From: an uncultured Candidatus Saccharibacteria bacterium
GTDB lineage: Bacteria > Patescibacteriota > Minisyncoccia > Minisyncoccales > Staskawiczbacteraceae
Length of the DNA stretch: 30,769 nucleotides
Reading direction: 5' to 3'
Assembly (NCBI GenBank): GCA_964466215.1
Contig: CAYXRV010000001.1
Coordinates: 1 to 30,769, forward strand
How positions within the stretch are numbered: the stretch's first letter is position 1; every line of letters starts with the position of its first letter. A model generated the notes under the pieces. It worked only from the letters and a program-made list of their open reading frames with translations, did no database searches and had not been told where the DNA came from. Position numbers and translations under genes: made by a program. Shown here piece by piece: positions 4,316 through 21,982 of this stretch.

Positions 4316-5614
4316 ATGAAAATTCACTTTATCGGAATCGGCGGAATAGGCGTTTCAGGACTTGCTCAATATTATTTATCAAAGGGGCACATTGTCAGTG
4401 GGTCTGATTTGGTGTCGTCTGAAATTACAGAATTTTTAGAGGAAAAGGAGATTAAGATTACGATTGGCTCGCATTCAGAAAACAATTTAAGCAGAGATGC
4501 TAATTTGGTTATTTACAGTCCCGCGGTAAAGCCAGATAATCCAGAATACAAAAAAGCAAAAGAGTTGAATATTAAATTGCAAAGCTATCCCGAAGCCCTT
4601 GGAAATTTAACAAAACAATATTTTACAATTGCCGTTTCGGGCACTCATGGAAAAAGCACCACAACAGCAATGATTTCTCTTGTTTTGGAAAAATCGGGTC
4701 TTGACCCAACTGTTATTGTGGGCACAAAACTCAAAGAATTTGGCGATACAAATTTTAGAGCTGGTAAAAGTAAGATATTAGTAATAGAGGCAGATGAGCA
4801 TTTTGCTTCATTTTTGAATTATTGGCCAAAAATTATTGTTCTGACAAATATGGAAAAAGAGCACTTGGATTATTATAAAAATTTAAATAATATTAAAAAA
4901 ACCTACAAACAATACTTGAGCCATTTGGGCAAAGATGGTATTTTGGTAGCCAATAAAGAAGATAAAAACATCAATAAAATAGCAAAAAAGGGCAAACACG
5001 AGGTAACTTTTTACTCAATAAAACAAAAAGAATCAAAAAGATTGAAAAGAATTTTGAAAATACCGGGCAAACATAATGTTTATAATGCCTTGGCTGTTTT
5101 GACCGTGGCAAGAATTTTGGGAGTTACAGACAAAATATCTTTTGATGTTCTATCAAAATATAGAGGGTCGTGGAGAAGATTTGATTTAAAACAGAGGAGA
5201 GCTGGTGGCAAAAAAATTATAGTCATATCAGATTATGGTCATCATCCAACAGAAGTTTTGGCAACCCTAAGAGCCACAAGAGAAAAATATCCAAAGAAAA
5301 AAATCTGGTGTGTTTTTCAGCCGCATCAATATCAAAGAACATATTACTTGTTTAATAATTTTGTAAAAATATTCAGGTCGTTGGCGATAGACAACATTAT
5401 AATTGCCGATATTTATGACGTTGCCGGACGCGAAACAAAGAAAATAAATGCCGAAATAAGTTCAGAAAAATTAGTTAAAAAAATTGATAAAAATAATGTC
5501 AGATATTTTTTATTGTGCGACATAGAAAAACATATCAAAGAACATATTAAAACCGGAGAGGTTTTGATTATTATGGGTGCCGGCGATATTTATAAATTAG
5601 CCGATAAATTTTAA
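4316..5614 (+). CDS. murC: UDP-N-acetylmuramate--L-alanine ligase
   Basis: HFIGIGGIGVSGLA, GTHGKSTTT, EADE, DYGHHPTE, VFQPH and MGAGDI motifs. Confidence 0.93.
   Translation: MKIHFIGIGGIGVSGLAQYYLSKGHIVSGSDLVSSEITEFLEEKEIKITIGSHSENNLSRDANLVIYSPAVKPDNPEYKKAKELNIKLQSYPEALGNLTKQYFTIAVSGTHGKSTTTAMISLVLEKSGLDPTVIVGTKLKEFGDTNFRAGKSKILVIEADEHFASFLNYWPKIIVLTNMEKEHLDYYKNLNNIKKTYKQYLSHLGKDGILVANKEDKNINKIAKKGKHEVTFYSIKQKESKRLKRILKIPGKHNVYNALAVLTVARILGVTDKISFDVLSKYRGSWRRFDLKQRRAGGKKIIVISDYGHHPTEVLATLRATREKYPKKKIWCVFQPHQYQRTYYLFNNFVKIFRSLAIDNIIIADIYDVAGRETKKINAEISSEKLVKKIDKNNVRYFLLCDIEKHIKEHIKTGEVLIIMGAGDIYKLADKF
5510..5522 (+). repeat. 13-bp core copy (TTATTGTGCGACA) of the recurrent site, inside murC
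   Basis: Identical to the cores at 12671-12683 and 21162-21174 and to the reverse complement of 20163-20175. Confidence 0.55.
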
Positions 5615-5646
5615 AAATAAAAAAAGAGCTGACAAATGTCAGCTCT
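5613..5646 (-). terminator. Intrinsic terminator between murC and the convergent small ORF
   Basis: Stem AGAGCTGACA/TGTCAGCTCT (5625-5646) with an A-run on its left, i.e. a U-tract on the minus strand. Confidence 0.7.
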
Positions 5647-5663
5647 ATCTATCAAAGAGAATA

Positions 5664-5885
5664 TTAAATATCCTTAGGATAAGGTTTTTTATGACATCTG
5701 TTGCCAGATGTTATTTTCAAGGATAGTTTACTTCCGCCTGAATTAATTTTTGCTTTACAGCGATTACACACGTGTTTTCCTTTTGGTAGCATCTCAGTGC
5801 ATCTTTTGCCAGAATTAACACCTAAGCACTGGTTTGGCAATTCAACCTTTTCTGTCAATTGCGACTCCATTCTAAATCCTTTCAT
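5664..5885 (-). CDS. Small Cys-rich hypothetical protein, possible zinc finger (probable start ATG 5870)
   Basis: C-x8-C-x10-C-x2-C spacing plus a late C-H; AAGGA 6 nt before the second Met; own consensus promoter and terminator. Confidence 0.6.
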   Translation of the reverse strand: MKGFRMESQLTEKVELPNQCLGVNSGKRCTEMLPKGKHVCNRCKAKINSGGSKLSLKITSGNRCHKKPYPKDI

Positions 5886-5936
5886 AAAAGATTAACAAAG
5901 AACTAAAAAGTATTCCAATTTTTAGAATACTTTTCT

Positions 5937-12443: not shown

Positions 12444-14957
12444 ATGAGACTAAAGCCCACCATTTTCGAATTTACTTCATATAAATTTGACCCTATTCAA
12501 AAAAGGATTTTTTTTAATTATAAAACCGAGTTTAAAGACGGAAACACTCTTTTTTTTACAGAAACCGTAGTTTTGCCAGAAATACCCAATGTTAAAGAAT
12601 TGCCACCGGGTCTTTTAGATAAAATATTTGAGGGGCTCCATTTAGTAATAGGTGTTAGCTATTGGAAATCTTATTGTGCGACAAAAATAAGAGTAAATTA
12701 TTCTTTGTCAAAGAGTGAATCGGATTTTTGGGATACAGTTTATAGAAAGGGTTTGGGTGAATTTTTTTATAAAAATAATCTTGATACCAAAATTTCTCCA
12801 AAATTTCCATTCAAAAAAAATGTAAAAACAAATTCTTACAAATTAGAAAAAAATAATAAATGTCTTGTCGGAATAAGCGGGGGAAAGGATTCAATAGTCG
12901 CAGTAGAGATTTTGAAAGAACAGAATTTTAATGCAACAGCTTTCTTCACCGAAACCCAAAATGAATCTAGTCTTGTTAATGCAATAATAAATATAACAGG
13001 AACAAAGTCCGTAAAAATAAGAAGAATTTTAGACGAAAAATTATTTGATTATAATAAATATGCAGGCCACGTTCCAGTTTCTGCAATATATGCATTTTTA
13101 AATATTCTTTGCGCAGTTTTGTATGAATATTCTTATTGTATAGTAGCCAATGAATACAGCAGTAATTTTGGCAACACAAAACATAAAGGTGAAGTTATTA
13201 ATCATCAGTGGAGCAAATCTTCGGAATTTGAAAACTTGTTTGTAAATTACGTTAAAAATTTTATAACCCCAGATGTTCATTATTTTTCTTTGTTGCGTCC
13301 GTTCTATGAAATTCGCATAGTGGAACTTTTTTCAAAATACAAAAAATATTTTTCTTATTTTTCCAGTTGTAATAAAAATTTTATAATTAATAAAAATGGA
13401 AATGAAGTTTTGTGGTGCGGAGAATGCCCAAAGTGCGTTTTTGTTTTTATCTTGTTGTCCGCTTTTTTGTCTAAAAAAGAATTAGTCAATATATTCAATA
13501 AAAATCTTTACGAAGAAAAAAAATTGATGCCATTGTTTAAAGATGTTTTGGGTTTTGGAAAAATAAAACCATTTGATTGCGTGGGAACTTTTCAAGAAGC
13601 AAGAGTGGCTCTATATCTGGCCTCTCCAAAGTTTAAAAATAATTTAATTATTAAAACATTTTTGTCAAAAATAAAAGAGCCAAAATCTTTAATAAAAGAG
13701 GTTTTTGGCGCTAATCTTGCTCCAAATATTCCCAGCCAGTTTAGATTTTCGGGAATAAAAAATGTTTTAATTTTAGGCTATGGCAAAGAAGGAGAAGTTA
13801 CTAAAAAATATATTCAAAAAAATTATCCTAAATTAGAAATTGGAATAGCCGATATTAAATTTAGCAAGAATTACTTAGATAAACAAAAAGATTATGATTT
13901 AGCCATAAAAAGCCCCGGGATTCCAAAAAGCTATGTTAAAATTAATCATACTACCGCTACAAATATATTTTTTGCAAAAATCAAACAATTAGGGAATAAA
14001 ACAATCGGCATTACTGGGAGCAAGGGCAAAAGCACAACAACGCAACTTATATATTCAATATTAAAAGAATCTGGAAAAGATGCAAGAATCTTGGGGAACA
14101 TCGGAAATCCAATGTTGCAAGCGTTGTTGGGCCCGATTAAAAAAGGTGAGATTTTTGTATTAGAGCTTTCCAGCTATCAATTAGATGATATTGATTTTTC
14201 GCCCAATATTGCAGTGATAACTAATTTATTTCAAGAACATATGGATTACCATTCCGGCGCTGAAAACTATTACTTGGCCAAACAGAATATAATTAATTTT
14301 CAAAGTCCAAACGATATATTTATTTATAATCCAAAATACAAAAAACTTGTTTTGTGGGCAAAAAAATCTCTTTCAAGAACAATTCTATTTCCAAATAATG
14401 TTCCATTAGAAAATTCTAAAATTCCTTTGATAGGTGGGCACAATAAAGAAAATATAAAAGCCGCGATTGCAGTAGCTAATATTTTTGGTGTATCGGATGC
14501 ACTAATTAAAAAAACAATTAAAAATTTTAAAAGTCTTCCTCATAGATTAGAATTTGTGGGAGAATTTTACGGAATTAAATTCTATGACGATGGCAGCTCA
14601 ACAAATCCAGAATCGGCAATATTGGCGATTAGGGCTCTTAAAAATATTGATACAATTTTTCTCGGCGGGGAAGATAGAGGTTATGATTTTTCGCAATTGG
14701 AGAAAACAATTAAAAAGTATAAAATAAGAAATATAGTGTTATTTCCAGATAGCGGAAATAAAATTTTAAAATCCAAAAAAAATTTTAACATACTATATAC
14801 TTCCAAAATGAAAAAAGCGGTTGATTTTGCTTATAAAAATACTAAAAAAGGTAAAATATGTTTACTGTCAGGAGCGGCTCCAAGCTATTCTTTGTGGAAA
14901 AATTTTGGAGAAAAAGGAGATCAATTCCAACAAGCAGTTAATGAATTTTTTGAATAA
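12444..14957 (+). CDS. murL-murD: Fusion of MurL (UDP-MurNAc-L-Ala-L-Glu epimerase) and a MurD-type ligase
   Basis: N-half: GVSYWK, PP-loop SGGKDS, NHQWSKS, FSSCN, WCGECPKC. C-half: GITGSKGKSTT, LELSSYQL, HMDYH, LPHRLE, LLSGAAPSY. Confidence 0.8.
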   Translation: MRLKPTIFEFTSYKFDPIQKRIFFNYKTEFKDGNTLFFTETVVLPEIPNVKELPPGLLDKIFEGLHLVIGVSYWKSYCATKIRVNYSLSKSESDFWDTVYRKGLGEFFYKNNLDTKISPKFPFKKNVKTNSYKLEKNNKCLVGISGGKDSIVAVEILKEQNFNATAFFTETQNESSLVNAIINITGTKSVKIRRILDEKLFDYNKYAGHVPVSAIYAFLNILCAVLYEYSYCIVANEYSSNFGNTKHKGEVINHQWSKSSEFENLFVNYVKNFITPDVHYFSLLRPFYEIRIVELFSKYKKYFSYFSSCNKNFIINKNGNEVLWCGECPKCVFVFILLSAFLSKKELVNIFNKNLYEEKKLMPLFKDVLGFGKIKPFDCVGTFQEARVALYLASPKFKNNLIIKTFLSKIKEPKSLIKEVFGANLAPNIPSQFRFSGIKNVLILGYGKEGEVTKKYIQKNYPKLEIGIADIKFSKNYLDKQKDYDLAIKSPGIPKSYVKINHTTATNIFFAKIKQLGNKTIGITGSKGKSTTTQLIYSILKESGKDARILGNIGNPMLQALLGPIKKGEIFVLELSSYQLDDIDFSPNIAVITNLFQEHMDYHSGAENYYLAKQNIINFQSPNDIFIYNPKYKKLVLWAKKSLSRTILFPNNVPLENSKIPLIGGHNKENIKAAIAVANIFGVSDALIKKTIKNFKSLPHRLEFVGEFYGIKFYDDGSSTNPESAILAIRALKNIDTIFLGGEDRGYDFSQLEKTIKKYKIRNIVLFPDSGNKILKSKKNFNILYTSKMKKAVDFAYKNTKKGKICLLSGAAPSYSLWKNFGEKGDQFQQAVNEFFE
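12667..12686 (+). repeat. 20-bp copy (AATCTTATTGTGCGACAAAA) of the recurrent site, inside the murL domain
   Basis: Identical to 21158-21177; 19 bp identical to the reverse complement of 20161-20179. Confidence 0.8.
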
Positions 14958-14958
14958 T

Positions 14959-16080
14959 ATGAGAAAACATCCAAATTATTATTTACTTTTTTTGGTAATT
15001 GTTCTAGTTGTTTTTGGCATTCTGTTTTTATCAACCCTTTCAGCGCCCGCATCTATCAAAAGTTTTGGCAACACAAACTATTATTTTATACATCAGCTGT
15101 ATTTGCTTTTGACTGGAATAATTTTGGCTGTAATCGCTTATAAATTACCATTAGATTATTTAAAAAAATTAGCGCCAATTTTATTATTTATTAATTTAGG
15201 GTTTTTAATATTTGCTCTTTTGCCAATTTTTGGCATTAAGTTTTGGGGAGCAAGACGCTGGATAAGCATAGGCATAGCCACTTTTCAGCCATCTGAAATG
15301 TTGAAAATTACAGCTGTTTTATATTTAAGCGCGCTGATTTCTAATAAATTATCGGAAAGTCGCAAAGGGGGATGGATATTTGTGGCAAAAAAAGGTTATC
15401 ATAATATAAAGTATGTATTTGCTCCTTTTTTAATTTTTTTGGCAATAATCTCGGCGCTTCTGTCTCTACAGCCAGATATTAGCACCTTAGGAATAATTGG
15501 ATTGACATTGGTTCTTGTATATTTTTTTGCCGGCACACCCGTTTGGAATACGATTTTTATATTATTCGGAGCCGTTGGCGGTTTGTTCGCTTTGATAAAA
15601 TTTGAGCCATACAGATTAGACCGTTGGTTAATTTTTTTGCATCCTGAGGCAGACCCTTTGGGCAAGGGATTCCAAATAAAACAATCTTTAATCGCTATCG
15701 GGTCGGGTGGATTTTTTGGAAAGGGCTGGGGAATGTCGGTTCAAAAATTTGGTTTTTTGCCACAGGCAATGGGAGATTCAATTTTTTCGATATTGGGCGA
15801 GGAAACTGGAATTATTGGTTGCTTGTTTGTGATTGCTCTTTTTTCATTTTTTTTATTTCTTGGAGTCAAAATCGCAAAATCGTCAAATGATAAATTTGCT
15901 CAATTGACTGCTATAGGAATTACTTTTTGGATATCGATTCAGGCATTTTTTAATATTGCCGCCAATTTGGGAATAGCGCCCTTGGCTGGCATTCCTTTGC
16001 CATTTTTTAGCTATGGCGGGTCGCATTTAATTACGGAGTTGATAGGAGTTGGAATGTTGCTTAATATATCTAAAACATGA
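14959..16080 (+). CDS. ftsW: SEDS peptidoglycan glycosyltransferase FtsW/RodA
   Basis: GARRWI, FQPSEMLK, QPD, GYQ-like GFQIKQSLIAIGSGG, LPQAMGDSIF, GIPLPFFSYGGS; start set at ATG 14959, 1 nt after the murD stop. Confidence 0.9.
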   Translation: MRKHPNYYLLFLVIVLVVFGILFLSTLSAPASIKSFGNTNYYFIHQLYLLLTGIILAVIAYKLPLDYLKKLAPILLFINLGFLIFALLPIFGIKFWGARRWISIGIATFQPSEMLKITAVLYLSALISNKLSESRKGGWIFVAKKGYHNIKYVFAPFLIFLAIISALLSLQPDISTLGIIGLTLVLVYFFAGTPVWNTIFILFGAVGGLFALIKFEPYRLDRWLIFLHPEADPLGKGFQIKQSLIAIGSGGFFGKGWGMSVQKFGFLPQAMGDSIFSILGEETGIIGCLFVIALFSFFLFLGVKIAKSSNDKFAQLTAIGITFWISIQAFFNIAANLGIAPLAGIPLPFFSYGGSHLITELIGVGMLLNISKT

Positions 16081-17192
16081 AAATATTATTTACGGGTGGT
16101 GGCACAGGAGGACATATTTTTCCGATAGTTGCCATTGCCAGAGAAATAAGAAGAATTTATCCAAAGAAAGATTTGGAGTTTTATTATTTGGGAGCGAAAG
16201 ATGAGTTTGGATTAATAATGTTAGGCCAGGAAGATTTTAAAATAAAAACAATAATATCGGGAAAAATCAGAAGATATTTCTCATACCAAAATATAATAGA
16301 TATTTTATTTAAAATACCTATTGGTTTTTTGCAAAGTATATTTTTACTTCTAGTAATTCGCCCTCAGTTGGTTTTTAGCAAAGGGGGGTCTGGGTCTATT
16401 TCTGTGACTTGGGGCGCAAGGTTTTTGAATATACCCGTATTTTTGCACGAATCGGACATTGTGCCCGGATTGTCTAACAGAGTCACTTCAAAATGGGCAA
16501 AAAAAATATTTGTGTCTTTTCCAAAAACAGAATATTTTGACCCCAAAAATACGATTTTAGTTGGAAACCCAATAAGAAAAGAATTACTGAATGGCGACAA
16601 AAAAACGGCGGGGGATTTGTTTGATTTGACTTTTCAAAAACCGATAATTTTATTTATAGGAGGGTCTCAGGGAGCAGAAGCTCTTAATGATTTTGTTTTA
16701 AATATTTTAAACGACTTTTTGTCAGAGTTTGAATTAATCCATATTTGCGGCAGAAATAATATAGAAGAAGTGGAGGCAGAATCTTTGGTGGTAATCAATA
16801 AAGATTTAGCAAAATATTACCATGTTGTAGGTTTTTTGGACGAAGAAAAAATGAAGCATGCCTATAAAGCCGCAGACTTCGTGGTATCTCGCTCGGGTTC
16901 AGGATCTATTTTTGAATTGGCGGCCATGGGGAAGCCAAGCATTTTGGTTCCATTGCCTTCGGCTGCGGCCGACCATCAGGCAAAAAATGCTTACGTTTAT
17001 TCGCAAACAGGAGCGGCGCTGGTTGTAGAGCAAGACAATTTAACTCGTAATTTCTTTTTGGATGTGATTCACAATATATTTTTGCATCCGGATAAATTGG
17101 AAAAAATGAAAGAAGAAGCGCTGAGATTCTCAAAACCATTGGCGGCCAAAGCTATTGCCAGAGAAGTTCTGGAATATTTTGAATTGGAATAA
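16077..17192 (+). CDS. murG: Undecaprenyl-PP-MurNAc-pentapeptide GlcNAc transferase
   Basis: TGGGTGGHIFP, KGGSGS, HESD, GNPIR, GGSQGA, SRSGSG and HQAKNA motifs. Confidence 0.95.
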   Translation: MKILFTGGGTGGHIFPIVAIAREIRRIYPKKDLEFYYLGAKDEFGLIMLGQEDFKIKTIISGKIRRYFSYQNIIDILFKIPIGFLQSIFLLLVIRPQLVFSKGGSGSISVTWGARFLNIPVFLHESDIVPGLSNRVTSKWAKKIFVSFPKTEYFDPKNTILVGNPIRKELLNGDKKTAGDLFDLTFQKPIILFIGGSQGAEALNDFVLNILNDFLSEFELIHICGRNNIEEVEAESLVVINKDLAKYYHVVGFLDEEKMKHAYKAADFVVSRSGSGSIFELAAMGKPSILVPLPSAAADHQAKNAYVYSQTGAALVVEQDNLTRNFFLDVIHNIFLHPDKLEKMKEEALRFSKPLAAKAIAREVLEYFELE

Positions 17193-17196
17193 AAAT

Positions 17197-18732
17197 ATGA
17201 AAACAAAAGATAGTAAAATAAAAAAAATTCGCGTCAGAATAGCTCCGTCGCCAACAGGAGCGTTGCACATTGGCACAGCCAGAAGCGCGCTTTTCAATTA
17301 TTTGTTTGCAATGAAGAATAGGGGTATTTTTGTGTTGCGCATTGAGGATACGGATTTAGAAAGGTCTGACTTAAAATGGACGCAAGATATAATAGAAGAA
17401 TTAAAATGGCTTGGCATAGACTGGCATGAGGGTCCGGACATTGATGGCAAATATGGTCCATACAAACAATCGCAGAGATTGGATATTTATGAAAAATATA
17501 TTAGAAAACTTTTAGACGAGAATAAAGCCTATTATTGTTTTTGTTCAGAAGACGAATTGGAAGAAATGCGCCAGGAGCAGATGGTTAGGGGAGTAGCTCC
17601 TCATTATAACGGGAAATGCGCCAATCTGCCAAAAGAAGAGGTGAAAAAACTTTTAGACCAAAAAAAACCATCGGTAATAAGATTTAAAATTCAACATAAG
17701 AAAGTTAAATTCACAGATTTAGTTAGAGGAGAAATAGAGTTTAATGCGGGACTTTTGGGGGACATTGTTATTGCCAAAAATTTAAATACTCCTTTGTATA
17801 ATTTTGCTGTTGCGGTTGATGATCAAGAAATGCAAATAAGCCATGTTATTAGGGGAGAAGACCATCTCTCAAACACTCCAAAGCAGATTTTAATACAAGA
17901 AGCATTGGATTTTGACCAGCCAATATATGCCCATTTACCATTGATTTTAGCGCCAGACAGGACAAAACTCTCAAAAAGGCACGGAACCGTTTCTATCGCT
18001 GAATACAGAGAGCAAGGATATTTGCCAGAGGCTTTGGTAAACTTCATGGCGCTTTTGGGCTGGAATCCGGGCACAGAAAAAGAAGTATTTACTTTGTCGG
18101 CTTTGACTAAAGAGTTTTCTATGGAAAAAGTTCAGAAAGCGGGAGCCGTTTTAAACATTCAAAAACTAAATTTTATAAACGGTTTTTATATACGCGAGAA
18201 AGCAACTGAAAAACTAACAGAACTTTGTTTGCCGTATTTAATTTCCGCAAAATTAATTGAGGAGTACAGTGGTGGTTATAAAATTGTGGAAACAGGCCAA
18301 GAAATACTTTTGGCAACTCTGCAAAAAATTGTGGAGGCGTACAAATCAAGATTAAAAAAGTTGTCAGAGATTACGGAATTCACAGATTTCTTTTTTAAGG
18401 AAAAGTTAGATTATCAAAAAGAAATATTACAATGGCAACAGATGACAGATGAAGATATCAGGGAGTCGCTTTTGGTATCAGAAAGAAAATTATCTGAAAT
18501 AAAAAATTGGAATGCAAAAAACTTAGAAGAAGAATTAATTAAAGAAGCCGTAAAATTGAATTTGGAAAAAGGTTATCCGGAAAAAAACAGGGGATTTTTG
18601 TTGTGGCCGTTGAGAACTGCTTTGTCGGGCAAGCAGGCGTCGGCCAGTCCGTTTGAAATTGCCGATATTTTAGGCAAAGAAAAAACTTTGCAAAGGATTA
18701 ATGAGGCAATAGAAAATTTAAAATATGAATGA
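17197..18732 (+). CDS. gltX: Glutamate--tRNA ligase
   Basis: RIAPSPTGALHIG, LRIEDTD, HVIRGEDH, KLSKR; start moved to ATG 17197. Confidence 0.95.
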   Translation: MKTKDSKIKKIRVRIAPSPTGALHIGTARSALFNYLFAMKNRGIFVLRIEDTDLERSDLKWTQDIIEELKWLGIDWHEGPDIDGKYGPYKQSQRLDIYEKYIRKLLDENKAYYCFCSEDELEEMRQEQMVRGVAPHYNGKCANLPKEEVKKLLDQKKPSVIRFKIQHKKVKFTDLVRGEIEFNAGLLGDIVIAKNLNTPLYNFAVAVDDQEMQISHVIRGEDHLSNTPKQILIQEALDFDQPIYAHLPLILAPDRTKLSKRHGTVSIAEYREQGYLPEALVNFMALLGWNPGTEKEVFTLSALTKEFSMEKVQKAGAVLNIQKLNFINGFYIREKATEKLTELCLPYLISAKLIEEYSGGYKIVETGQEILLATLQKIVEAYKSRLKKLSEITEFTDFFFKEKLDYQKEILQWQQMTDEDIRESLLVSERKLSEIKNWNAKNLEEELIKEAVKLNLEKGYPEKNRGFLLWPLRTALSGKQASASPFEIADILGKEKTLQRINEAIENLKYE

Positions 18733-19030
18733 AAAAGGGTTTGTGAGAAATATTGTAATTATAATTATACTTTTAATAGTGGTGTTTTTGAGTCAGCAAA
18801 CATACTTTAATAAAATCGGCAGAAATCTCTATTTCCAGGCGCAAACACAGATTAAAACATATTGGGCAAACATCTACCCCGGAGCGAGTGGGGAAGTGGA
18901 AAAGAAAAGCGCAGTTTTACAACAAGAAATTAATAAACAAAAAAATAATATTGCGCAAAATATTTGGAATAAAATAAAAAATTATTTTGCCGGTATTTTT
19001 ACAAAAGTTTCCGGCACGCCCGTGCAGTAG
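18725..19030 (+). CDS. Hypothetical single-TM protein
   Basis: 101 aa, hydrophobic N-terminus, overlaps the gltX stop. Confidence 0.6.
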   Translation: MNEKGFVRNIVIIIILLIVVFLSQQTYFNKIGRNLYFQAQTQIKTYWANIYPGASGEVEKKSAVLQQEINKQKNNIAQNIWNKIKNYFAGIFTKVSGTPVQ

Positions 19031-19147
19031 GAGATGCCTTAACAGTGTCTTTGCTCTGTTGTAGTATTATATATAATGTCGCAAAATGTAGGTAAACCGA
19101 AGTAATATAGAGTATAATAGGGCACCAAGCGCCATAAAGCAAAAGTT

Positions 19148-20119
19148 ATGAAAAAGTCATCAAAACCATTAAAAGAACATTTGCACGATTTTTTAGATTA
19201 TTGTGAAGTTGAAAAAGGTTTGCGTAATAATACTCAGGAAAATTATAAAAAATATTTAGAAAAGTTTTTTTATTGGCTAAATGATACCAAAAATAGCTCT
19301 CTGCTTCCCCACCAACTGACATCCGAACACATCTGGACCTATAGATTATACCTTTCCCGCCAACCAAGCCCGGCTACGGGCAAACTGCTGTCTAAGGGTA
19401 CCCAAAACTACTATTTAATCGCTCTAAGGGCCCTTTTAGCCTATTTTGTGGCTAAAGACATACTTTCACTGCCCCCAGGCAAAATAACCCTTCCTAAGGC
19501 CGATAAAGCTCAAAAAACAGTAAAATTCCTTAGTTTAGAGCAGATTGGCAAACTTTTGGCCTCGGTTGAACCAAAAGACGCTATTTCCATCCGTGACAGG
19601 GCTATTTTGGAGAGCTTTTTTTCAACCGGTCTTAGAATCGCAGAATTAGTATCTTTGAATCTTGAGCAGTTTAACAGCTTAAAAGATAAAAAAGATATGG
19701 AGCTTGGAGTGATTGGAAAAGGAGGCAAACCGCGTGTTGTTTATTTTTCTGAACGCGCTTTAAGCTTCATAAAAAAATATCTCGAAATAAGAAATGGAAT
19801 AGAAAATGCAAACACCAAAGCCCTGTTTATAAACTTTCGTGATAAAAAAGGAAATGCAGATAACCGTCTTTCGCCAAGGTCAATTGAAAGAATGGTAAAA
19901 AAATATGCCTTGTTGTCGGGCATACCAATTTTCACAACTCCGCATACCTTGCGCCATAGTTATGCAACAGATTTATTGAACCAAGGAGTTGACTTGCGCA
20001 GTATTCAAGAATTTTTAGGCCACAGCAATATCGCCACCACCCAAATTTACACGCACGTGACAAACAAGCGTTTGCGCGATATTCATCACCAGTTTCACTC
20101 AGACCCAGATAAAAAATAA
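19148..20119 (+). CDS. XerC/XerD-family tyrosine recombinase
   Basis: N-terminal SAM-like domain; catalytic TGLRIAE, GKGGKPR, HTLRHSYAT, LGHS and TQIY (R-K-H-R-H-Y). Confidence 0.92.
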   Translation: MKKSSKPLKEHLHDFLDYCEVEKGLRNNTQENYKKYLEKFFYWLNDTKNSSLLPHQLTSEHIWTYRLYLSRQPSPATGKLLSKGTQNYYLIALRALLAYFVAKDILSLPPGKITLPKADKAQKTVKFLSLEQIGKLLASVEPKDAISIRDRAILESFFSTGLRIAELVSLNLEQFNSLKDKKDMELGVIGKGGKPRVVYFSERALSFIKKYLEIRNGIENANTKALFINFRDKKGNADNRLSPRSIERMVKKYALLSGIPIFTTPHTLRHSYATDLLNQGVDLRSIQEFLGHSNIATTQIYTHVTNKRLRDIHHQFHSDPDKK

Positions 20120-20160
20120 GAGGTTGTAAACATCGTTAATATTAATTTTATTTACCATAA

Positions 20161-20182
20161 TTTGTCGCACAATAAGATTATT
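20161..20182 (-). repeat. 22-bp site, left member of a perfect inverted pair
   Basis: TTTGTCGCACAATAAGATTATT is the exact reverse complement of 21155-21176. Confidence 0.85.
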
Positions 20183-20184
20183 GC

Positions 20185-20214
20185 AAAATAAAACCGCCAA
20201 TGTTGCTTGGCGGT
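20185..20214 (-). terminator. Intrinsic terminator of the 20229-20489 ORF
   Basis: ACCGCCAA/TTGGCGGT stem (20193-20214) with an A-rich left flank. Confidence 0.7.
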
Positions 20215-20228
20215 ATGCCTTGCTTGGT

Positions 20229-20489
20229 TTACCCTTTGAGAAATTCTGTGTCAATTCCACATGACAAAAGTTCGGCTTGAATGGTGGCGGGAAATGGTAC
20301 GCAGGTTTTATTAGTTTTTGATTCCATACGTCGTAAAATTTCGGCACTTAAATGAAAAATTTTTTTGCGCAGAATTCCACAAAGTCCCGTAGTATTTACC
20401 TGCGCTATTATTTGTACTAATTTTTTAATCAGTTTTTCATTGGACATTTCCGCTAATTCATTTATGAATTCTTCCAGATGATTTGTCAT
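20229..20489 (-). CDS. Small hypothetical protein
   Basis: 86 aa; GGAG 7 nt before ATG; own promoter and terminator. Confidence 0.65.
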   Translation of the reverse strand: MTNHLEEFINELAEMSNEKLIKKLVQIIAQVNTTGLCGILRKKIFHLSAEILRRMESKTNKTCVPFPATIQAELLSCGIDTEFLKG

Positions 20490-20534
20490 TGTTTTTTCTC
20501 CGGATAAAGTTTTGAGATGAAAGGTTCTGATTGT

Positions 20535-20563
20535 TTTATATCACAGTAATATTTAAATTTCAA
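20535..20563 (-). promoter_or_regulatory. Sigma70-type promoter for the 20229-20489 ORF
   Basis: TTGAAA (20563-20558), 17 nt, TATAAA (20540-20535) with extended TG. Confidence 0.6.
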
Positions 20564-20566
20564 CTA

Positions 20567-20595
20567 TTGTCGCACAATTAGATATTTAGTATAAT
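20567..20595 (+). promoter_or_regulatory. Promoter of the LAGLIDADG-like gene, overlapped by a degenerate copy of the recurrent site
   Basis: TTGTCG (20567-20572), 17 nt, TATAAT (20590-20595); 20567-20586 reads TTGTCGCACAATTAGATATT. Confidence 0.55.
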
Positions 20596-20619
20596 TAACT
20601 TGCGTTAAAATAATATATT

Positions 20620-21117
20620 ATGCCAGTAAAAAATAATATTAATATTCCGGCGTTAGTTAACAAAGAAGGATGCTTTGATTTGCAGTTTAGAAAAGACACA
20701 AGGAGCGAGCGAACCGGCGCGCCGACATATTACAGATGGAAAATTCAGTTTGTTGTTACCGGCCCAAAAGAAAAAGAGAAGATGTTTAAAATTGTTAAAG
20801 GTGTGATTGGTTGCGGAGATGTTTGCATCACAAAAGACCAGGCCAGATATTCGGTGCAAAAAATTGATGATATAAATAATATGGTTGTGCCTTTTTTTCG
20901 GAAAAATCAGCTGGCTGATAAAAAGAAAAGAGACTTTGAATTGTGGCAAAGAGCGGTTGATATTATATATAAAAATAAAGGCAAATATCTTGTAAAATGG
21001 AAAAAAAACGACCTACTCTCTTTAATTGAAATTCAAAAATCGGCGGCAAAATACAAAAATAAACCAAAACAGCCAAAATGGATAAAAATGGCGCAAGCGT
21101 TGGCTAAGACGCTTTAA
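20620..21117 (+). CDS. Free-standing, degenerate single-motif LAGLIDADG-fold protein
   Basis: IPALVNKEGCFDL aligns with the LAGxxDGEGxFxx motif; downstream GCG, ARYSV, VPFF and K-K-x-DFELW pattern of LAGLIDADG endonucleases. Confidence 0.7.
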   Translation: MPVKNNINIPALVNKEGCFDLQFRKDTRSERTGAPTYYRWKIQFVVTGPKEKEKMFKIVKGVIGCGDVCITKDQARYSVQKIDDINNMVVPFFRKNQLADKKKRDFELWQRAVDIIYKNKGKYLVKWKKNDLLSLIEIQKSAAKYKNKPKQPKWIKMAQALAKTL

Positions 21118-21154
21118 TTTAGCGCTCGCTTCCCTACTCCGGCGTGTTTCCTAT

Positions 21155-21176
21155 AATAATCTTATTGTGCGACAAA
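21155..21176 (+). repeat. 22-bp site, right member of the perfect inverted pair
   Basis: AATAATCTTATTGTGCGACAAA. Confidence 0.85.
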
Positions 21177-21178
21177 AC

Positions 21179-21204
21179 AAAACCGACAAAAATGTCGGTT
21201 TTTT
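21179..21204. terminator. Bidirectional intrinsic terminator between the LAGLIDADG-like gene and uppS
   Basis: AAAACCGACA-AAAA-TGTCGGTTTT-TT. Confidence 0.75.
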
Positions 21205-21212
21205 AATTTTAG

Positions 21213-21284
21213 GCGGAAATAAGGATATTTTTCAACACGCCTCGCCCACAGCCAGCCCGAATTGAAAAATATCCCCATTTCCGC
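21213..21284 (-). repeat. 72-bp imperfect palindrome, copy 1 (24-bp stem, 24-nt G-tract loop)
   Basis: 63/72 identical to 22143-22214; on the minus strand the arms pair at 24/24 positions with 3 G-U/T pairs. Confidence 0.85.
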
Positions 21285-21295
21285 TTTTTATATGA

Positions 21296-21982
21296 TTACT
21301 TTCCGAATCTGCGAGCGCGGCGATTGAATTCTTCCAGAGCCAAGTCTAAATCTTGTTCTGTGAAATCGGGCCAAAGTTTTGGTGAAAAATATAATTCAGA
21401 ATAAGCGGCTTGCCATAAAACAAAATTAGACAATCTCATTTCTCCTCCGGCTCTTATTATTAAATCCGGAGCTGGCAGGCCATTTGTGGATAAGTAATTT
21501 TCAAATAATTTTTCGTCAATTTTTTCTGCTGGTATTTTCTCTTCTATTATTTTTTTTACTGCTTGCAAAATATCCCATTTTCCGCCATAGCTTATAGCCA
21601 AGTTCAAATTAAGGCTTGAGTTTTTGACTGTGGATTCTTCGGTTGTTTTTATGACTTTTTGCAGAGACTCCGGCAGTCTTTCTTTTTGCCCAATTATTCT
21701 TACCCTTACGCCGTCTTGATTATATTTTTCCAAATTATCAACGAGGCATTTTTCCAACAGTTTCATTAAGTAATTAACTTCTTCTTCTGACCTTGACCAG
21801 TTTTCTGTTGAAAACCCAAAAGCGGTAAGCGCTTTCACTCCCCTATTTTTGCACCATTCAGAAAAATCAACCAGATTTTTATATCCCTGCATATGGCCAT
21901 CCAAAGAAGCTATGCCTTTTTGTTTTGCCCAGCGTCGGTTGCCGTCAGGAAATAAAACAATATGTTGTGGTATGTGTTCCAT
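21296..21982 (-). CDS. uppS: Undecaprenyl diphosphate synthase (cis-prenyltransferase)
   Basis: DGNRRWA, FSTENWSR, AISYGG, PDLIIRAGGEMRLSNFVLWQ, RRFG. Confidence 0.95.
   Translation of the reverse strand: MEHIPQHIVLFPDGNRRWAKQKGIASLDGHMQGYKNLVDFSEWCKNRGVKALTAFGFSTENWSRSEEEVNYLMKLLEKCLVDNLEKYNQDGVRVRIIGQKERLPESLQKVIKTTEESTVKNSSLNLNLAISYGGKWDILQAVKKIIEEKIPAEKIDEKLFENYLSTNGLPAPDLIIRAGGEMRLSNFVLWQAAYSELYFSPKLWPDFTEQDLDLALEEFNRRARRFGK

Follow-up and report, generated by a model that had tools for sequence, protein, structure and literature searches.

The window, meaning the whole 30,769-nucleotide stretch of DNA analyzed here, carries a gene for a small LAGLIDADG-fold protein at the point where many chromosomal copies of an asymmetric 15-bp motif converge, beside a dif-like site and a switch in GC skew. 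The copies are strongly polar, their abundance across genomes tracks the gene, one of them overlies the promoter of the gene, and constraint on the catalytic residue has been lost among orthologs of the protein. We lean toward a model in which this domesticated protein binds the copies as polar, Ter-like sites, represses its own gene, and most likely arrests replication forks that have run past dif, where binding, repression, and arrest are all inferred. A fuller account is offered only tentatively and could well prove wrong. It holds that a LAGLIDADG endonuclease that invaded xer was tamed in a clade of Parcubacteria, and that this gave rise to a third independent fork trap, whose 15-bp, Xer-arm-like sites bracket dif and arrest overshooting forks.

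The features of the window relevant to this model are the following.

5512 to 5523, minus strand: motif copy with one mismatch (ATGTCGCACAAT), oriented like the copy at 12668 and likewise on the left replichore.
12668 to 12684, minus strand: near-full copy of the polar motif within an 837-aa ORF, antisense to that ORF, on the left replichore.
19076 to 19103, plus strand: candidate dif, ATGTCGCAAAA-TGTAGG-TAAACCGAAGT (11-6-11), 45 nt upstream of xer, where motif orientation flips.
19148 to 20119, plus strand: Xer-type tyrosine recombinase gene (Pfam Phage_integrase, 134 bits, plus N-terminal SAM-like domains).
20161 to 20182, plus strand: left repeat arm, which holds one motif copy (20162-20176) and lies between the xer stop codon and the ORF86 terminator.
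20193 to 20214, minus strand: terminator-like hairpin after ORF86.
20229 to 20489, minus strand: ORF86, an 86-aa orphan divergent from the LAGLIDADG gene.
20567 to 20595, plus strand: promoter of the LAGLIDADG gene, TTGTCG-17-TATAAT, with a motif copy (20567-20581) over the -35 and spacer that is a putative operator.
20620 to 21117, plus strand: gene for the single-domain, 165-aa LAGLIDADG-fold protein (Pfam PF00961), the proposed motif-binding protein (binding inferred).
21155 to 21176, minus strand: right repeat arm, with a motif copy 38 nt past the LAGLIDADG stop codon, within the 3' UTR.
21179 to 21202, no strand assigned: bidirectional terminator-like hairpin separating the LAGLIDADG gene from uppS, which converges on it.
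21296 to 21982, minus strand: uppS, convergent with the LAGLIDADG gene; the right replichore begins here, with a switch in gene strand and GC skew.

The first-pass annotation described a perfect 22-bp inverted repeat enclosing the gene and a third copy over its -35 and spacer, and both descriptions are accurate. A repeat search finds two 22-nt arms that are 100% complementary and 972 nt apart (20161-20182 and 21155-21176), and the third copy at 20567-20583 matches the repeat at 16 of 17 positions. With three or fewer mismatches allowed, the 22-mer has three matches, whereas shuffles predict 0.01. However, the repeat had been taken for a feature of this locus alone and for a 22-bp pseudo-palindromic site, and these views must be abandoned. 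The two arms and the promoter copy are three instances of an asymmetric chromosomal motif, tTGTCGCAYAATAAa, whose conserved core is about 15 bp rather than 22 bp. Another copy is present at 12668-12684, and the own genome has eight copies of the 17-mer. The codons that hold the site in the 837-aa ORF hold none in the G184 and G312 orthologs, although G184 has one about 50 codons away in the same gene. Thus, sites turn over. Tandem pairs of sites about 24 bp apart are found in five genomes (G158, G372, G354, G217, and G385).

The motif is far more common than expected. Its exact 12-mer is present 10 times in the 374-kb own genome and 7 times in G184, compared with expectations of 0.11 and 0.24, and a reversed control motif yields zero copies. 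Genomes in which the motif is enriched carry 4-19 copies, where about 0.1-0.25 exact copies would arise by chance.

Site orientation follows the direction of replication. In G184, G312, G217, and G207, 81 of 89 sites are located on the lagging strand (p = 2.5e-16), a count whose scope is summarized as five genomes from four genera and two families. Six of the eight exceptions fall within about 2 kb of dif, and the exact sites outside the locus in the own genome obey the rule without exception (7/7). Two sites in head-on genes are oriented according to replication, not transcription. The flip in orientation occurs at a unique, dif-like sequence of 28 bp that closely precedes xer, where GC skew also switches, and this dif candidate is situated between the opposed groups of sites. 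The cumulative GC-skew maximum falls at about 19-21 kb in the window, at 228 kb in G312 (gene at 228.2-228.7 kb), at 49 kb in G217 (gene at 48.7-49.2 kb), at 189 kb in G207, and at 489 kb in G184. An association with the terminus had been suggested from the window alone, and the skew switch, the dif-like site, and the polar array converging there all support it. The sites are also biased in their distribution, with 13 of 13 in G184 lying in an origin-distant portion that makes up 44% of the chromosome (p = 2e-5) and 15 of 19 in G312 lying on the terminus contig (p = 3e-4).

Several other readings were set aside. By our own estimate, a GC-skew bias acting on a net excess of 1-2 C would give a strand preference of about 1.3-1.7 to 1, not 81 to 8. 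A KOPS-like role is rejected given that the copy number is far too low and that even G381, a genome without the motif, has FtsK complete with its gamma domain. A peptide motif is rejected because in-gene sites use all three reading frames.

In the model we favor, forks arriving from the origin reach the A-rich tail of each site first, and sites scattered over the terminus-proximal chromosome have TTGT heads that all face dif just upstream of xer, with the LAGLIDADG gene at the convergence point. The most likely role would be polar arrest of forks beyond dif, with organization of the terminus domain as the main alternative. This alternative, which we judge unlikely but worth keeping in mind, supposes that the protein-bound array works like MatP and matS, organizing the domain or marking it to serve segregation, compaction, or the timing of Xer/FtsK. 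Polarity would then exist only because tight asymmetric complexes are tolerated solely in the fork-permissive orientation. The same evidence serves both explanations, and this question has also arisen for Tus traps of very great width (PMC8707476). In the window, G217, and G207 the sites closest to dif are interleaved and face outward around the gene, which fits a role other than a trap better, whereas in G184, G312, and G104 a narrow innermost opposed pair brackets dif. The right arm (21155-21176) has the orientation opposite to that predicted from the polar array. Because the presumed blocking faces of both arms point outward, about 1 kb would be stranded between two arrested forks, which is awkward for a strict trap. 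The perfect inverted pair is a lineage-specific arrangement, and it is not what a simple fork trap would have. However, matS-type sites are palindromic and non-polar, and the orientation rule observed here is nearly absolute.

Co-occurrence of gene and motif had been proposed as a check, and the check, once run, favors the link. Among 401 genomes of the order, counts of 4-19 are found only together with a close ortholog of the gene, with the exception of G081 (4 sites, no LAGLIDADG gene detected), and counts elsewhere are 0-2. The enriched groups are family f1, genus g163 of family f27, and one genome of f36. The Parcubacteria clade of the fuller account is a family-level one, and the source records name Ca. 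Staskawiczbacteria among others. A natural deletion provides a second line of evidence. The congener G381 lacks the segment corresponding to window positions 20098-21294 and retains xer, dif, and ftsK, and it has at most one motif copy genome-wide (one exact 12-mer; one fourteen-mer at one or fewer mismatches), compared with 15 in G001. The first-pass annotation also stated that orthologous genes without the motif nearby would refute its proposal. This situation is encountered only with distant orthologs (40-50% identity); the genomes of G186, G053, and G346 have zero copies of the motif. The compared genomes are interrelated, and the independent contrasts are few, amounting to three clades and one deletion.

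The candidate dif at 19076-19103 satisfies the definition of such a site: 28 bp, present once, and built of inverted 11-bp arms around a 6-bp spacer. The own genome has no second copy, the 28-mer recurs unchanged upstream of xer in G207, and the arms are palindromic (ATGTCGCAAAATGTAGGTAAAGCGACAT) in G184 and G381. It was identified by aligning the regions upstream of xer. A first dif regular expression gave only the type present in G312 and G217, and the window contains no dif with E. coli-like arms. The polar motif does not satisfy the same definition, being multi-copy and having one arm only. However, positions 1 and 9 are the only differences between the motif and the dif left arm ATGTCGCAAAAT, and so Xer could contribute to binding.

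This resemblance leads to an explanation we consider improbable, namely that the motif is a half-site for the neighboring tyrosine recombinase and that the LAGLIDADG gene is a mere passenger that once homed into xer and does nothing at the sites. Indeed, the motif matches generic dif arms (ATGTCGCAAAA, ATGTCGTACAA, GTTCGCATAA, and ACTTCGCATAA), its orientation flips at dif, and homing can explain the linkage of the two genes. In G346, the LAGLIDADG stop codon is followed by a relic duplicate of the final 17 codons of xer, an invasion scar in that gene. The xer gene adjoins the LAGLIDADG gene in four of five genomes examined (about 6 kb separates them in G207), is directly 5' of it in five loci from three distant families, and has a homolog beside it in every distant family examined. 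However, motif enrichment is restricted to genomes with close LAGLIDADG orthologs, and G381 lost its sites along with the LAGLIDADG gene despite keeping xer and an intact dif. Moreover, 99% of sites have C or T at motif position 9 and hardly any have A, the base carried at this position by the four type-A dif left arms read in f1, and the sites have no adjacent second arm or 6-bp spacer.

The 165-aa protein matches Pfam LAGLIDADG_1 (PF00961) at 41.1 bits (cut-off 23.1), with residues 16-112 covering positions 8-101 of the 102-position profile. An AlphaFold2 model (pLDDT 90.4) contains the elements H9-16, E17-26, E37-49, H50-63, E67-71, E74-79, and H82-95, and by AlphaFold2 and Foldseek it meets the criterion of an alpha-beta-beta-alpha-beta-beta-alpha core fold. 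The top Foldseek matches are I-TnaI (E = 2.8e-10, TM 0.70-0.78), I-CreI (TM 0.70-0.76), and the I-OnuI family. A beta-hairpin, FDLQFRxD...P.Y..W..QF, has positions that are invariant in 28 orthologs and represents a conserved DNA-contact hairpin. There is only one domain, with no Pfam match to WhiA or to a helix-turn-helix. A two-copy homodimer prediction from a 28-row alignment scored 0.00 and is given no weight either way.

The LAGLIDADG motif had been called eroded, and this is correct for the helix-packing glycines but not for the catalytic acid, since the protein of the window keeps E16, which aligns with the catalytic glutamate of I-OnuI-type enzymes. Of 30 orthologs, 14 have another residue at this position (G, N, Y, S, I, T, Q, or K), including those of G184, G312, and G217, all of which retain polar arrays. 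The gene is single-copy in its own genome and in most f1 genomes (five have a second match), is present in 20 of the 22 genomes of the family, and occupies a fixed synteny of dif, xer, and the gene itself, followed by convergent uppS. Thus, it does not meet the criterion of selfish mobility (intron, intein, or patchy free-standing insertion). Most distant orthologs (40-50% identity) keep the canonical endonuclease motif, IAGFVDGEG. Domestication, as first suggested, remains the best reading of these sequences. The protein appears to be a vertically kept LAGLIDADG DNA-binding protein with a dispensable catalytic residue, for which DNA binding is inferred. On this reading, an endonuclease that homed into the 3' end of xer founded the lineage, and the present protein, with DNA cutting no longer needed, would bind the 15-bp motif. 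A GCGACA hexamer is shared between the motif and the xer 3' end, and it is the sole basis for possible descent of the motif from an ancestral homing site, which is a lead only.

A motif copy in the promoter of the gene was also part of the original proposal, and the arrangement recurs, as 23 of 30 orthologous loci have a copy 33-161 nt ahead of the start codon. In the window, TTGTCG-17-TATAAT is the best promoter-like site on the plus strand (10/12) and lies 25 nt before the ATG at 20620. Since the site covers the -35 and spacer, occupancy would result in negative autoregulation, although repression is inferred. Such an operator-like site would also be expected if the protein were an ordinary transcription factor, the motif its regulon, and polarity a by-product of the co-orientation of genes with replication. 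The share of intergenic sites agrees with this idea (40/89, or 45%, versus about 7-21% non-coding DNA from a crude ORF call). Given this excess and the several sites that abut hairpins, a transcription-related role is not excluded. However, we regard a simple regulon as very doubtful. Forty-seven of the 89 sites are inside coding regions, 45 of these are antisense to the gene, and sampled sites outside the LAGLIDADG promoter have no -10 box at promoter spacing. Furthermore, promoters oriented like the autoregulated one would drive head-on transcription, the opposite of the 82-86% gene co-orientation with replication, and the sites are restricted to the terminus-proximal half of the chromosome.

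The first-pass annotation counted two divergent genes within the repeat. The 165-aa gene on the plus strand stands, but ORF86 could be either spurious or a gene of very recent origin. It has no Pfam match and no relative in any fetched locus or genome, and a database of 5.8 billion proteins, searched at lengths of 47-151 residues (other lengths were outside the search), holds no match except ORF86 itself. The flanks of the arms are identical beyond the 15-bp motif, implying a recent duplication or conversion. Eight of 30 loci, and two close relatives as well, have a site on the 3' side of the gene, and it may point either way. That the 1-kb segment is a mobile element with terminal inverted repeats and an active free-standing homing endonuclease, or is invertible by the adjacent recombinase, can be set aside as barely credible: it would account for perfect 22-bp terminal repeats beside a tyrosine recombinase, the kept glutamate, the identical flanks, and the absence of the segment from G381 with a single motif copy left, but the cassette is single-copy, has no transposase domain and no target-site duplication (flanks CATAAT and ACAAAA differ), has inverted copies close to the gene at just 5 of 32 distinct loci and no inverted isoform among loci examined, keeps its position and orientation relative to xer (co-oriented) and uppS (convergent where seen) in every locus examined, and has arms that are ordinary members of the genome-wide motif.

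Taken by analogy, the layout is that of a Tus/Ter or RTP/Ter fork trap built on an unrelated fold, from which fork arrest is inferred. As in Tus/Ter, asymmetric sites numbering about 5-20 per chromosome form two opposed groups directed toward dif, and they are spread across the terminus-proximal chromosome, some within genes (PMC8707476, PMC6549158). TerB is located in the tus promoter, and tus is autoregulated (PMC8707476, PMC6549158). The array likewise meets the criteria of opposed asymmetric groups converging on the terminus and dif (G184, G312, G217, G207, and the window) and of a terminus-adjacent protein gene whose promoter contains a site (20567-20595 in the window; 23/30 loci). However, there is no sequence or fold relationship to Tus, whose Pfam domain (PF05472) has no match in the own genome (88.6% complete), whereas a control search finds Tus in E. 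coli. In addition, the site sequence is unrelated and resembles an Xer arm, some innermost sites are interleaved, and the gene, xer, and dif form a linked group spanning about 1.5 kb.

The system resembles RTP/Ter of Bacillus subtilis in that the gene for a small protein is found at the terminus next to the sites that belong to it. Upstream of rtp, TerI and TerII are arranged as an inverted pair. The tandem pairs with a spacing of about 24 bp are reminiscent of the bipartite A/B sites in that system, but RTP is a winged-helix dimer whereas the protein here has a LAGLIDADG fold, and the RTP domain (PF02334) has no match in the own genome.

Fold and Pfam family are shared with single-domain LAGLIDADG endonucleases such as I-CreI and I-TnaI, and CPR bacteria are known to carry rRNA-insertion enzymes of this class, such as I-ShaI (PMC11270868). 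The distant orthologs that keep IAGFVDGEG, one with its scar in xer, are akin to homing endonucleases. However, the gene in the window is in no intron, intein, or rRNA insertion and is vertical and syntenic, its helix-packing glycines are lost, and the catalytic acid is widely replaced among its orthologs. An active nuclease would not be tolerable with its inferred 15-bp asymmetric target present many times in the host chromosome. A parallel in fate is WhiA, where a LAGLIDADG scaffold has abandoned cleavage for a chromosomal DNA-binding role, which is inferred here. WhiA has two degenerate LAGLIDADG domains and a C-terminal helix-turn-helix. In contrast, the present protein has one domain and no helix-turn-helix, and WhiA is not known to be linked to a polar terminus array. 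Finally, dif is immediately upstream of a single xer at the skew switch, as in XerS/difSL and XerH/difH, and there is precedent for dif beside a single xer gene (PMC1914069, PMC2731167). This likeness concerns only the neighboring dif-xer module, as the polar motif is multi-copy and single-armed.

Literature searches turned up neither a LAGLIDADG-type terminator nor a polar terminus motif for CPR bacteria. The known fork traps are only two, Tus/Ter and RTP/Ter, which are mutually unrelated and restricted to four clades (PMC6549158), and with so few examples the reason for such traps is hard to state. The site-protein pair is small (15 bp and 165 aa), making direct testing in E. coli feasible, and it might be used as an orthogonal polar DNA roadblock. 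If our interpretation is true, it would be a clear case of a selfish nuclease becoming hardware for chromosome architecture, with polar barriers linked to dif and Xer both physically and by sequence. A third invention, in ultra-small CPR genomes, would mean that polar terminus barriers are a recurrent solution.

The first-pass annotation had described a perfect 22-bp inverted repeat around the LAGLIDADG gene and a further copy over that gene's promoter, and both are confirmed. The 22-mer has three matches in the window at up to three mismatches, compared to 0.01 predicted from shuffles. The third copy (16/17 identical) overlies the -35 hexamer and spacer of TTGTCG-17-TATAAT (20567-20595), which is the top-scoring promoter-like site on the plus strand and is located 25 nt 5' of the ATG of the 165-aa ORF. 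The locus carries the following features.

19076-19103: dif-like site, a 28-mer with an 11-6-11 layout (ATGTCGCAAAA-TGTAGG-TAAACCGAAGT), 45 nt 5' of xer
19148-20119: gene for a Xer-type tyrosine recombinase, left neighbour
20161-20182: left arm of the inverted repeat, TTTGTCGCACAATAAGATTATT
20229-20489, minus strand: ORF86 (86 aa), the second enclosed ORF, with a terminator-like hairpin
20567-20583: third copy of the repeat
20620-21117, plus strand: LAGLIDADG gene (165 aa)
21155-21176: right arm, complement of the left arm
right neighbour, convergent: uppS

No relatives of ORF86 were found in the fetched loci or among near-length proteins of a 5.8-billion-protein database. The spacer before uppS carries a separate 23-nt inverted repeat (21213-21235 / 21262-21284, 91%) whose arms resemble an internal uppS segment (21563-21586, 87%), as though fragments of this gene had been copied into the terminus.

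The repeat is one instance of a more widespread element. With up to two mismatches allowed, eight copies of its 17-mer core are present in the 374-kb assembly, all with zero or one, and a copy at 12668-12684 lies within an 837-aa ORF. When 110 sites from five genomes are combined in a logo, information is confined to about 15 positions (tTGTCGCAYAATAAa), with none in the flanks, and thus the site is asymmetric and shorter than 22 bp. This does not agree with the 22-bp pseudo-palindromic recognition site proposed earlier. The additional bases shared by the two arms in the window instead point to recent duplication or conversion. In four genomes (G184, G312, G217, and G207), sites fall between genes in 45% of cases, and several are beside hairpins. 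Intergenic copies often abut such hairpins in G312 contig 1 (e.g. 135321-135377, 208863, 240354), where GTACCACCGACCCATCGGTGGTAC recurs, and in G207 contig 2 (149806, 168633), where the hairpin is GGGGTGTCGGACACCCC. The adjoining hairpins in the window are the terminators at 20193-20214 and 21179-21202.

The orientation of the sites follows replication. In the closed genome G184 (661,750 bp), cumulative GC skew is minimal at 165 kb and maximal at 489 kb, and the LAGLIDADG gene is located at 469.6-470.1 kb. Sites occupy the minus strand at 383-470 kb and the plus strand at 472-576 kb and 9-13 kb, and none were found across 362 kb around the origin. The skew maximum of G312 contig 1 (228 kb) falls exactly at the gene, with 16 minus-strand sites to its left, six plus-strand sites to its right, and no exceptions. 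The maximum is also at the gene in G217, from another family (49 kb), and G207 is similar. When the four genomes are pooled, the lagging strand carries 81 of the 89 sites (p = 2.5e-16), and the eight exceptions include six at a distance of about 2 kb or less from the switch. In the window's own assembly, all seven exact sites outside the locus are on the C-rich strand. The sites are also concentrated near the terminus, with 13/13 in 44% of the G184 genome (p = 2e-5) and, in G312, 15/19 on the contig that includes the terminus (p = 3e-4).

Sites within genes are antisense to co-oriented genes, and two sites in head-on genes keep the replication direction. All three reading frames are used, which indicates that selection acts on DNA rather than on a peptide. 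The first site beyond dif encodes the same antisense peptide, LLLCDKI, in two genera (G184 at 472493 and G312 contig 1 at 231299). This innermost far-side site seems to be positionally conserved, although orthology of the two genes is not established.

Cumulative skew in the window climbs to approximately 21 kb and then declines, with a peak region at about 19000-21300, and gene strand changes from plus to minus at 21.2 kb. These two features together indicate that the window holds the replication terminus. The link to the terminus suspected from the sequence alone is therefore strengthened, as the skew maximum, strand switch, and dif-like site coincide where the motif array converges. The dif-like site is unique in each genome searched; its 28-mer has palindromic arms in G184 and G381 and is identical in G207. 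Apart from the eight exceptions, motif sites lie on opposite strands on either side of dif with their TTGT ends toward it, and the innermost opposed pair is spaced by 2.3 kb in G184, 2.5 kb in G312, about 2 kb in G104, and 7.5 kb in the window (12684 to 20162). Ter sites likewise "point toward the dif site", such that only forks leaving dif are blocked (PMC6549158), and the opposed groups of the polar motif share this geometry.

For the 12-mer TTGTCGCAYAAT, exact matches were tallied across 401 genomes of the order. It occurs 10 times in the window's own genome and 4-19 times in each of 19/20 other gene-bearing genomes of the same family, 3/3 genomes of genus g163 in family f27, and one f36 genome, whereas the remaining genomes, save G081, have 0-2. 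Chance expectation from a first-order Markov model is 0.11 for the own genome and 0.24 for G184, and the reversed 12-mer is absent from each genome of the window's family. With one mismatch allowed, the own genome has 15 copies.

The cleanest contrast is G381, a member of the window's genus whose flanking genes share 79-85% nucleotide identity. The counterpart of window 20098-21294 is absent, leaving 13 nt between the stop codons of xer and uppS with one solo motif copy (ATGTCGCACAAT) in the gap. A 14-mer has one match at up to one mismatch in this genome versus 15 in G001. Motif abundance thus tracks close orthologs and is lost with the gene, but G081 has four sites and no detected LAGLIDADG gene, and no motif was found in genomes with distant orthologs (G186, G053, and G346). 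Independent contrasts are few (three clades and one deletion), and the compared genomes are mutually related. The architecture and the dependence of the motif on the gene are directly evident from these comparisons.

A role for the recombinase must also be considered. Only two positions distinguish the motif from the dif left arm, and it falls within the range of dif arms across the order, where the site 5' of xer occurs with four or more types of arm (ATGTCGCAAAA, ATGTCGTACAA, GTTCGCATAA, and ACTTCGCATAA). Because of this resemblance, Xer may contribute at motif sites, or the sites may derive from dif. However, G381 retains xer, an intact dif, and ftsK, and this deletion, together with the confinement of the motif to genomes that have a close ortholog, argues that the LAGLIDADG protein is required.

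The window's Xer protein shares 89% identity with its counterpart in G207, from another genus, whereas at the DNA level xer reaches only 70% identity with the gene of G381 (L042 8612-9571), below the flanking genes. The dif-xer module may have been exchanged. In locus L110 (GCA_030651135.1, 300-3399), from a close relative whose LAGLIDADG protein is 86% identical, xer and the LAGLIDADG gene are separated by a block of about 3.1 kb that holds GmrSD/HNH, an EcoRI-type methylase, and two further genes, and the terminus resembles a hot spot for insertions. In G381, a 1.3-kb insertion (L042 6817-8173) with two ORFs (170 and 180 aa), missing in the window, separates gltX from the gene homologous to the window's 101-aa ORF.

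The 165-aa ORF matches Pfam LAGLIDADG_1 (41.1 bits, cut-off 23.1), and its structure model (pLDDT 90.4) forms an alpha-beta-beta-alpha-beta-beta-alpha domain whose top structural matches are I-TnaI, I-CreI, and I-OnuI-type enzymes. The gene is conserved and not mobile. It is single-copy in its own genome, with orthologs in 20/22 other genomes of the family (48-72% identity) and in four further families (f6, f27, f36, and f53; 43-50%), and weaker ones in others. It directly follows xer in the window, G184, G312, and G217 (about 6 kb away in G207), with uppS convergent on its 3' side in the first three. The catalytic position is E in the window, aligned with the catalytic E of I-OnuI-type enzymes, but is G, N, Y, S, I, T, Q, or K in 14/30 orthologs. 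The first beta-hairpin (consensus GCFDLQFRKDxRxxRxxxPxYYxWxxQF) is invariant across 28 sequences at F19, D20, L21, Q22, F23, R24, D26, R31, P35, Y37, W40, and Q43, and near-invariant at several others. As inferred from sequence, cleavage is thus dispensable whereas the predicted DNA-reading surface is strongly constrained. All 556 database relatives are labelled solely "LAGLIDADG family homing endonuclease" or "hypothetical", mostly from Ca. Staskawiczbacteria, Parcubacteria, or Patescibacteria. G354 contig 104 carries two tandem paralogs (4753-5229 and 5430-5924), the second 45% identical to the query. In the G017 ortholog (L118), the motif is eroded to IESAG and the reading frame contains a TAG, and a copy of GTGTCGCACAAT persists 20 nt past the stop.

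Orthologs in distant families keep a canonical motif (IAGFVDGEG in G053 and G186; VAGLTAGEG and VAGLTTGEG in G346 and G325) and begin no more than about 60 nt from the xer stop codon. In G346 (L114), a relic of the last 17 xer codons (KRLRDIHRQFHSGKNLK*) lies just after the LAGLIDADG stop, and a decayed xer relic follows the gene in G186 (L116). As judged from sequence, these relics are the scar of an endonuclease gene invading the 3' end of xer. In the window's lineage the helix-packing glycines are replaced (NIPALVNKEG versus IAGFVDGEG). A homing endonuclease would have become fixed beside xer and dif and later been domesticated. Insertions in CPR rRNA genes are rich in single-domain LAGLIDADG enzymes (PMC11270868), which offers a ready source for such a gene.

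A motif site is located 33-161 nt 5' of the start codon in 23/30 orthologous loci and overlaps the -35 in every sequence read. Tus represses its own synthesis via TerB in the tus promoter (PMC8707476), and the LAGLIDADG gene is parallel in its own-promoter site, although repression here is inferred. A second site just past the stop codon occurs in 8/30 loci and two close relatives, inverted in the window, G217, and L110 and direct in G001, G354, L112, and f36 genomes. Thus, the perfect bracket emphasized by the first-pass annotation is real in the window but is a lineage-specific form of a commoner layout with one site before and one after the gene.

The data are most simply read as a Tus/Ter-like system that uses an unrelated fold, wherein protein-motif binding, self-repression, and fork arrest are all inferred. 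An asymmetric, sequence-specific protein-DNA complex would be tolerated solely in the fork-permissive orientation on each replichore. Such complexes would converge on dif, and the self-controlled gene would sit where they meet. Interleaving of the sites closest to dif was observed in the window, G217, and G207. The presumed blocking faces of the window's two arms are both outward, and about 1 kb would remain between two arrested forks. This arrangement fits a leaky barrier, a local regulatory or insulating role, or terminus organisation better than it fits a strict trap. The right arm is within the 3' UTR of the LAGLIDADG gene, 5' of the terminator hairpin, and we speculate that transcription may clear it.

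Tus and RTP are the only known fork-trap systems in the literature searched (PMC6549158), neither of their Pfam domains was found in the window's own genome, and no description of a system like this one was found in that literature. The comparison supports and sharpens the initial inference of a domesticated, site-recognising terminus protein, with binding itself still inferred, and the Tus/Ter-like reading makes this gene and its motif a candidate for a third type of polar terminus system.
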